DNA of 64,000 nt. It comes from Octopus vulgaris (Eukaryota). The stretch's first letter is position 1. Every line of letters starts with the position of its first letter. Positions 50,402-51,583 of this stretch are shown here, in pieces. The DNA lies in contig OX597814.1 in NCBI GenBank assembly GCA_951406725.2, forward strand, positions 113,770,001 through 113,834,000. Reading direction: 5' to 3'. The position numbers and the translations under genes were made by a program. A model generated the notes under the pieces. It saw nothing but the letters and a program-made list of their open reading frames with translations. It did no database searches and had not been told where the DNA came from.

Positions 50402-50474
<73 letters not shown>

Positions 50475-50700
50475 GAAATATTAAAATAACTAAGTCTCTC
50501 TAAAAGAGAACAGCGGCAGCGTTCCCGGAAAATAATAGTTATCGCCATACTAATATGGCATTCTTATAAAAATAAGAAAAAAGCTGTCCGCTTATTAGCT
50601 CCATGAGGTCATCGCCTTAAGTTAGCTATTTGATACACAAACTGTATCCATATAACCTTCGAACAAGGGAGGTCAGTCGCTCCACACTACTTGACCGGCA

Positions 50701-50742
50701 GCTACAGACGCGTTTCGTGGTATTGCCCCTTTTCAATGCAGC
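50701..50742 (-). ncRNA. Minimal hammerhead ribozyme (U3-A8 core)
   Basis: GCUGCA-UUGAAAA-GGGG caaua CCAC-GAAACGCGUC-UGUAGC (one stem II mismatch). Confidence 0.8.
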
Positions 50743-51061
50743 GTAGCCAGCCAGTAGGTGTCGCTTCCGACAATCTCTGTTCGATGGTTTTATTTACCTA
50801 GTTTCGGTGGAATACATCCACTTGTTTTCAATAATAGAAATATTAAAATAACTAAGTCTCTCTAAAAGAGAACAGCGGCAGCGTTCCCGGAAAATAATAG
50901 TTATCGCCATACTAATATGGCATTCTTATAAAAATAAGGAAAAGCTGTCCGCTTATTAGCTCCATGAGGCCATCGCCTTAAGTTAGCTATTTGATACACA
51001 AACTGTATCCATATAACCTTCGAACAAGGGAGGTCAGTCGCTCCACACTACTTGACCGGCA

Positions 51062-51103
51062 GCTACAGACGCGTTTCGGGGTATTGCCCCTTTTCAATGC
51101 AGC
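51062..51103 (-). ncRNA. Minimal hammerhead ribozyme (U3-A8 core)
   Basis: GCUGCA-UUGAAAA-GGGG caaua CCCC-GAAACGCGUC-UGUAGC. Confidence 0.88.
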
Positions 51104-51305
51104 GTAGCCAGCCAGTAGGTGTCGCTTCCGACAATCTCTGTTCGATGGTTTTATTTTCCGGGAACGCTGCCGCTGTTCTCTTTTAGAGAGACTTAGTTAT
51201 TTTAATATTTCTATTATTGAAAACAAGTGGATGTATTCCACCGAAACTAGGTAAATAAAACCATCGAACAGAGATTGTCGGAAGCGACACCTACTGGATG
51301 GCTAC

Positions 51306-51347
51306 GCTGCATTGAAAAGGGGCAATACCCCGAAACGCGTCTGTAGC
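51306..51347 (+). ncRNA. Minimal hammerhead ribozyme (U3-A8 core)
   Basis: gctgca ttgaaaa gggg caata cccc gaaacgcgtc tgtagc; palindrome ACGCGU, GUC cleavage triplet. Confidence 0.88.
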
Positions 51348-51512
51348 TGCCGGTCAAGTAGTGTGGAGCGACTGACCTCCCTTGTTCGAAGGTTATATGG
51401 ATACAGTTTGTGTATCAAATAGCTAACTTAAGGCGATGGCCTCATGGAGCTAATAAGCGGACAGCTTTTTTCTTATTTTTATAAGAATGCCATATTAGTA
51501 TGGCGATAACTA

Positions 51513-51583
<71 letters not shown>

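Follow-up and report, generated by a model that had tools for sequence, protein, structure and literature searches.

Animal non-LTR retrozymes have been described as non-coding tandem repeats with a unit of 150-450 bp and a GC content below 50%, carrying one type I hammerhead ribozyme with a weak palindromic helix III per unit, and occurring in high copy number with a stable predicted circular fold and with Penelope-like elements (PLEs) alongside (PMC7229834, Cervera & de la Pena 2020; bioRxiv 10.64898/2026.07.22.740005, Li, Clavereau & Pollet 2026; these and most papers below are cited from available excerpts). Both sources propose that retrozymes are non-autonomous PLEs. The suggestion that PLEs gave rise to retrozymes or mobilise them dates from 2020 and stands in the title of the 2026 preprint, whose case, in the excerpts available, draws on co-occurrence and pLTR trees only, and according to a 2020 review retrozyme repeats show no motif that betrays an autonomous partner (PMC7761336). 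The questions at issue are what machinery mobilises animal retrozymes and whether it copies the circle. A typical Penelope insertion consists of two direct pLTRs and one inverted pLTR with an overlap and a tail (PMC3846280, Arkhipova et al. 2013). Insertions of endonuclease-bearing PLEs show a partial tandem with an inverted copy next to it on the 5' side, a short overlap at the junction, a one-sided tail and an AT-rich or (TA)n target, and PLEs are known to move non-autonomous cargo in trans (excerpts of PMC3846280; PMC8557442, Craig et al. 2021; PMC11167929, Frangieh et al. 2024).

We compared with these systems a locus in a 64,000-nt stretch of Octopus vulgaris DNA (the window, whose positions are used throughout), which is microsatellite-rich and of animal type. 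With good confidence we regard the locus as a young copy of a non-coding 362-nt retrozyme-like repeat that a Penelope-like, possibly Neptune-type, RT-endonuclease probably inserted into a (TA)n tract in a single event, priming on both target strands. Self-alignment, the breakpoint mapping proposed in the preliminary description, placed two direct blocks and an inverted arm to the base. Unit 1 (50469-50830) is a full 362-nt unit with its ribozyme sense on the minus strand and its 3' end against (TA)n, which we call site 1. It is followed head-to-tail, on the same strand, by a partial unit 2 of 326 nt, or 0.9 unit (50831-51156), in which a private 1-nt deletion produces a 361-nt period. The inverted arm (51151-51518, plus strand), whose 3' end also lies against (TA)n, is the reverse complement of 50530-50897, with three mismatches over 368 aligned nucleotides, and crosses the unit junction. 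Repeats of such length at 99% identity are far beyond chance expectation. The direct part and the arm overlap at the head-to-head inversion junction in a 6-nt microhomology, TTATTT (51151-51156), and the arm without these letters (51157-51518) is exactly 362 nt, one circularly permuted unit that runs from site 2 to site 2. The preliminary description had given the arrangement correctly, as a direct tandem plus an inverted full unit, but with a unit of ~361 bp instead of 362 nt and without noting that the second unit is only 326 nt long. Its ATTT microhomology near 51153 is the last four bases of TTATTT, and its account of an arm one unit long, shifted in phase and running across the unit junction was borne out.

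The element lies between a (TA)33 tract (50406-50471), with which it has three nucleotides in common (ATA, 50469-50471), and a (TA)n tract at 51519-51545, followed by (TACA)n. These are presumably the left and right parts of the target microsatellite, and a target-site duplication is indiscernible within (TA)n. The ribozyme sense is minus in the direct units and plus in the arm, so that the copies stand head-to-head and the RNA 3' end on either side faces (TA)n on the outside. The outer end on the left falls at unit position 1 and the right one at position 62; the 61 nt between them form a "tail" (50469-50529, minus strand) that is present only at the left, the arm's outer end being without it. 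Both ends lie at a AATAATAG motif, which occurs only twice per unit, and they are 238 and 177 nt, respectively, downstream of the ribozyme cut site. AAATAA is present at each of the arm's two ends. Over the common ~266 nt, the three copies each differ by 3-4 changes; unit 1 has private substitutions at 50609 and 50718, neither of which is in the arm, and the private mutations give no order among the copies. The unit has a GC content of 0.41, and over all six frames of its concatemer the longest reading frame has 55 codons.

By structural criteria, the 362-nt unit is likely an animal non-LTR retrozyme. It resembles these elements in its size, GC content and tandem, non-coding nature, in its single type I hammerhead with a weak palindromic helix III, here predicted from sequence, in its copy number, in the PLEs alongside and in its circular fold, predicted at -116.3 kcal/mol (z -7.5 against 100 shuffles). 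Unlike the retrozymes described in the excerpts available, it has a U3-A8 core, a head-to-head inverted full unit, a 61-nt tail and a (TA)n target. The layout of LTR retrozymes, two repeats around a unique middle, is not seen at the locus. The literature searched, which lay mostly outside subscription journals and was available in part, contained no retrozyme with inverted arms or tails and none from a cephalopod. The locus shares with endonuclease-bearing PLE insertions the partial tandem with its adjacent 5' inverted copy, the short junction overlap and the target, and its one-sided extension may correspond to the tail. It differs from the published insertions, as excerpted, in an extension of 61 nt where their tails have 30-40 nt, in having no ORF and in an inverted copy that is a whole permuted unit and not a 5'-truncated stump. 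An autonomous PLE was ruled out, since there is no ORF with RT and GIY-YIG in or between the units. With the element type and the layout already known, the locus is less unusual than first thought and represents expected biology.

The three type I hammerheads lie in unit 1 (50695-50750, minus strand; U3 at 50736, predicted cut between 50707 and 50706), in unit 2 (51056-51111, minus strand; U3 at 51097) and in the inverted arm (51298-51353, plus strand; U3 at 51312, predicted cut after 51341). All have the core UUGAAAA, with U3-A8 in place of C3-G8. Their design comprises a 6-bp stem I with a UAC bulge, a 4-bp stem II (GGGG-CAAUA-CCCC), GAAA, a palindromic ACGCGU helix III and a GUC site. Three well-formed hammerheads had been reported from the letters; the core is indeed present three times, but the GGGG/CCCC stem II is found only in the intact motifs of unit 2 and the arm, whereas unit 1 has GGGG/CCAC owing to the mismatch at 50718. 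The folding z-scores are -2.6 for the arm, -3.1 for unit 2 and -1.65 for the unit 1 copy. Among the 20 family variants listed, none touches the catalytic core (0/20); six are in the hammerhead region, three at unpaired and three at paired positions, and pairing is kept in all three of the latter. An Rfam search returned the hammerhead neither at the gathering threshold nor at E<=5, a miss that probably reflects the U3-A8 core, and the miRNA matches obtained at E<=5 were rejected as merely the hairpin and microsatellites. A hammerhead pattern search of viral and metagenome contigs gave no matches.

U3-A8 is a natural variant reported to be active in vitro (excerpts of PMC3088659, Perreault et al. 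2011). Cervera & de la Pena 2014 (excerpts of PMC4209133) found it in PLE-type motifs of Schistosoma, about 1,300 of them, and take a palindromic helix III to mean that the ribozyme cleaves as a dimer. The hammerheads of the locus share with the minimal hammerheads of PLEs in these two papers the U3-A8 covariation, palindromic positions around helix III and a dimer-type design, and differ from them in canonical helix sizes, in the stem I bulge and in having no extra base after A9. Could the units then be mere pLTR stumps of an autonomous coding PLE instead of an independent retrozyme? Truncated PLEs are known to carry opposite-strand hammerheads 100-700 bp apart as well as U3-A8 cores (excerpts of PMC4209133), and the helix III sequence ACGCGUC recurs in two of five hammerheads from 47 distant PLE loci. 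We nevertheless consider this improbable because the unit closes head-to-tail through a junction that is well covered in sequencing runs, with no ORF between the hammerheads, because the hammerhead is canonical in stems I and II and not minimal, and because the unit size fits the mussel retrozymes (350-390 bp; excerpts of PMC7229834).

We examined the family in sequencing runs, counting a run as containing the unit if at least half of the sampled words were present. By this measure, the unit was found in 20 of the 24 runs listed, from seven coded organisms and ten studies; no run recorded as RNA was listed among them, which says nothing about expression. Contigs were compared for four of the 24, with 50799-51230 as the reference stretch. 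Three deep runs yielded 4057, 2189 and 1743 contigs on one unit, figures that express depth and not copy number, and 63%, 60% and 63% of the contigs, respectively, were less than 99% alike. The 362-nt unit is an abundant, diverse, high-copy non-coding repeat. Depth is unbroken across the head-to-tail junction, which one contig of run X18 spans. Two contigs of the same run, taken to be RNA by guess only, jointly tile the whole unit, although contigs cannot reveal circularity or transcription. At site 1, run X1 has (TA)n loose ends in 20 and 13 contigs; site 2 recurs only weakly, with one such end near it among the rows listed (unit position 70, run X18). In several runs, divergent loose ends recur at 50871, 50932-50938 and 51111, a sign that the unit may comprise more than one subfamily.

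The 15 joints listed consist of 13 inversions with differing breakpoints, one deletion and one that is the unit's own continuity, and two of the inversion joints listed occur in runs from two different coded organisms. Of 14 inversion joints, these 13 and one more, 11 have an end at unit positions 19-54, within the tail (nominal P 0.0007-0.003), a clustering that carries ascertainment bias because the reference itself is inverted there and that serves as a lead only, not as proof. The joints also bear on an assembly artefact, a misjoin of this high-copy repeat. Tandem and inverted PLE structures trouble short-read assemblies (excerpts of PMC8557442), and the head-to-head junction of the studied locus was bridged by no listed contig in the four runs compared; one contig of run X3 passes it, but its alignment has 10 gaps and extends only 21 letters further. 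However, each copy has private changes, the ends are biologically patterned, comparable joints turn up independently in each of the three deep runs and a PLE structure of similar form lies at 35604-35968, so that we regard a misjoin as very improbable. The insertion might alternatively have begun as an ordinary retrozyme tandem, with DNA repair or template switching during replication inverting or duplicating it afterwards, independently of the insertion. Microhomology junctions are generic, and the window has another inverted duplication, of SINE-like DNA (4655-5654). Such a history seems hardly probable to us given that the arm's outer end is exactly on (TA)n at the motif of the left end, that the arm includes no flanking DNA, that the three copies are about equally diverged and that the family shows many different inversion joints.

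In LINE-1 twin priming, priming events on opposite strands result in an inversion with both RNA 3' ends outward and a microhomology joint. Unlike its products, the locus has no poly(A), its arms have the same sequence in different phase and its starts are internal. Each arm continues across hammerhead cut sites and a unit junction, implying that an RNA template was not a cut linear monomer, and since both RNA 3' ends face outward onto (TA)n, the layout is better explained by two primings than by a single template switch. The preliminary description had proposed copying from a concatemeric or circular RNA with a PLE-type template switch. A multimer or circle and PLE machinery are supported by the arms crossing the cut sites, by the published PLE signature and by the recurrent inversions, but the single switch gives way to priming on both strands. 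The three copies are 3-4 changes apart while most family contigs are less than 99% alike, which fits a single template.

In the mechanism that we propose, the enzyme would nick both strands of (TA)n. One 3'-OH would prime at site 1 and copy 688 nt (1.9 units), the other would prime at site 2 and copy 362-368 nt (one unit), and the two cDNA ends would then anneal through TTATTT/AAATAA before the gaps are filled in. The PLE RT-endonuclease would act in trans on the retrozyme RNA, whose dimer-type hammerheads would as a rule yield monomers of 361-362 nt that could then circularise. According to the excerpts of PMC11167929, a PLE protein nicks and extends both strands of AT-rich DNA, starts at two internal RNA sites whose spacing equals the tail, and mainly uses uncut RNA; priming there did not require homology with the target DNA, whereas the studied locus shows AT-rich matches.

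The length of the arm may inform on the template. An arm that ends where it began is expected at about 2-7% of microhomology-compatible junctions (with a tolerance of 3-7 nt, and post hoc), and the one-unit length is suggestive of a circular template, though not proof of it. On a circle, the arm would be one full turn; on an uncut multimer, synthesis would have stopped at the occupied start site of the next unit; with a fold-back, the same AT-rich motif would have been used twice. We place the circle just short of an even chance, the uncut multimer lower but as a serious candidate, and an arm copied back from the first cDNA as the unlikely one. In this last case, DNA would have been the template of the arm. 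After annealing to itself through TTATTT/AAATAA at 50892-50897, the first cDNA would have been extended back as far as 50530 and linked there to the target. This route changes only the final stage of our preferred explanation, with which it overlaps, and makes the one-unit length no more than a reuse of the motif. The arm is contained entirely in the direct part and has AAATAA at both ends, and self-priming has been proposed for PLE inversions (excerpts of PMC3846280). Against it, the substitutions of unit 1 missing from the arm must then postdate the insertion, and in vitro a PLE protein can elongate either strand of the target (excerpts of PMC11167929). We think that fold-back synthesis is unlikely and retain priming on both target strands. 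A more specific and decidedly tentative form of the latter sees the locus as a fossil of rolling-circle reverse transcription, in which a dimeric Neptune RT-endonuclease primed both (TA)n strands on 362-nt circles, one cDNA stopping after one turn at its own start and the other rolling 1.9 turns. If this were true, inverted-arm lengths across the family would peak at multiples of one unit, the locus would give direct genomic evidence for retrozyme circles as a transposition template, and the U3-A8 core would name the Neptune partner.

A broken, 5'-truncated Neptune-type PLE lies 2.5 kb from the retrozyme insertion and outside it (46025-48005, plus strand, 5' limit approximate) and ends in (TA)32. 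Its 484-codon ORF (46243-47697, plus strand) comprises the C-terminal half of the RT, a CX4CxxC linker and a GIY-YIG-type endonuclease. It matched Pfam RVT_1 with an E of 3.6e-6, below the curated cut-off, and was the only match in a Pfam scan of 12 of the window's 58 long ORFs, which identified no host gene. A search at E<=1e-20 gave 543 homologues of the protein; RT and GIY-YIG domains are present in many of them, and the best named one is from Argonauta hians (53%). A search of metagenome and viral contigs with the protein gave no confirmed loci. A CX2-5CxxC linker marks the Neptune and Nematis clades and is tied to (TA)n targeting (excerpts of PMC8557442). The 3' end of the same family is found head-to-head in (TA)n at 35604-35968 (inverted 35649-35756, direct 35754-35968), which serves as a control within the window: the layout of the retrozyme made by a recognisable PLE.

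Both Neptune copies have UUGAAAA-GC(UACAC)GC followed by palindromic ACCGGU and thus carry a minimal hammerhead with U3-A8 in degenerate form (at about 47832-47871 in the longer copy). Neither is intact, with GGAA in one and a base missing in the other, and a strict scanner called neither. As a control for U3-A8, we considered 47 PLE loci from prokaryote-labelled assemblies (L001-L047), which are distant (25-47% identity) and of which four have PLE-type hammerheads; the five hammerheads in these four loci and those of two other families in the window are all C3-G8. The PLE-type RTs in these assemblies are probably contamination from animal hosts. The retrozyme unit had no match at E<=0.1 in the 47 loci. 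Non-autonomous PLEs often have their 3' ends in common with their partner (excerpts of PMC8557442). A comparison of the unit with the Neptune 3' UTR gave a score of 17 against a shuffle mean of 20.7, with 293 of 300 shuffles scoring as high, and hence no similarity. The retrozyme and the Neptune family have in common only the U3-A8 core, the (TA)n target and the layout. On balance, we give even weight to the Neptune family of the window being, and not being, the mobilising partner of the retrozyme.

The window contains several other repeats. A pLTR-like family with a minimal C3-G8 hammerhead is present at 50201-50405 (core at 50277, with an extra base after A9), 39205-39406, 45162-45320 and 57640-57720. 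The first of these copies ends at the (TA)33 tract that holds the retrozyme; homology of the retrozyme unit to it was rejected on comparison. At 41710-43152, a 493-bp unit is repeated 2.9 times between TA runs with copies that differ at one edge position only, and it looks like another very young insertion of a ready-made concatemer; hammerhead scans of this unit found none. A very AT-rich element at 55374-56860 lies between two long (TA)n tracts and has 291-bp inverted ends (55444-55731 and 56604-56893, 95%) with about 100 extra bases at the left, possibly a PLE-type insertion with a tail. The region 4600-5654 contains an inverted duplication of about 400 bp (4655-5037 and 5239-5654, 89%), tRNA-like and SINE-looking, with (TTA)n, and a minimal hammerhead on the minus strand at 4653 adjoins it. 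Tandem repeats of 181 bp (about 3 copies, 33657-34297) and 184 bp (2.6 copies, 28585-29065) were also seen.

The predicted minimum free energy structure of a read-through transcript of the locus is a 368-bp stem with a 253-nt loop. In equilibrium pairing probabilities, the sole hammerhead of the plus-strand transcript is fully masked (0.0), and on the minus strand one hammerhead is free (0.98) and the other masked. The expectation that a transcript of either strand would contain a ribozyme and a dsRNA stem holds at the level of the sequence, but by prediction the plus-strand transcript loses its single ribozyme to the stem, and the minus-strand transcript one of its two. Because two cuts are needed to release a monomer, a copy with a masked ribozyme is predicted to be a poor source of circRNA. 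The three-copy locus is thus more likely to trigger silencing than to supply circRNA, and is likely a dead copy or a silencing one.

Insertion scars are a line of evidence on retrozyme mobility that is independent of co-occurrence and trees. Here, a retrozyme family that is abundant in several related species, with many inversions, bears the scar of a PLE, namely the inversion, the putative tail and the (TA)n target. Arm lengths and end points across the family could tell a circle, an uncut multimer and a fold-back apart, and PLE activity can already be assayed in vitro. Hairpin copies such as this one could be natural sources of dsRNA against the retrozyme family. Through its insertion scar, the locus ties a retrozyme to PLE machinery and offers Neptune as a candidate partner.
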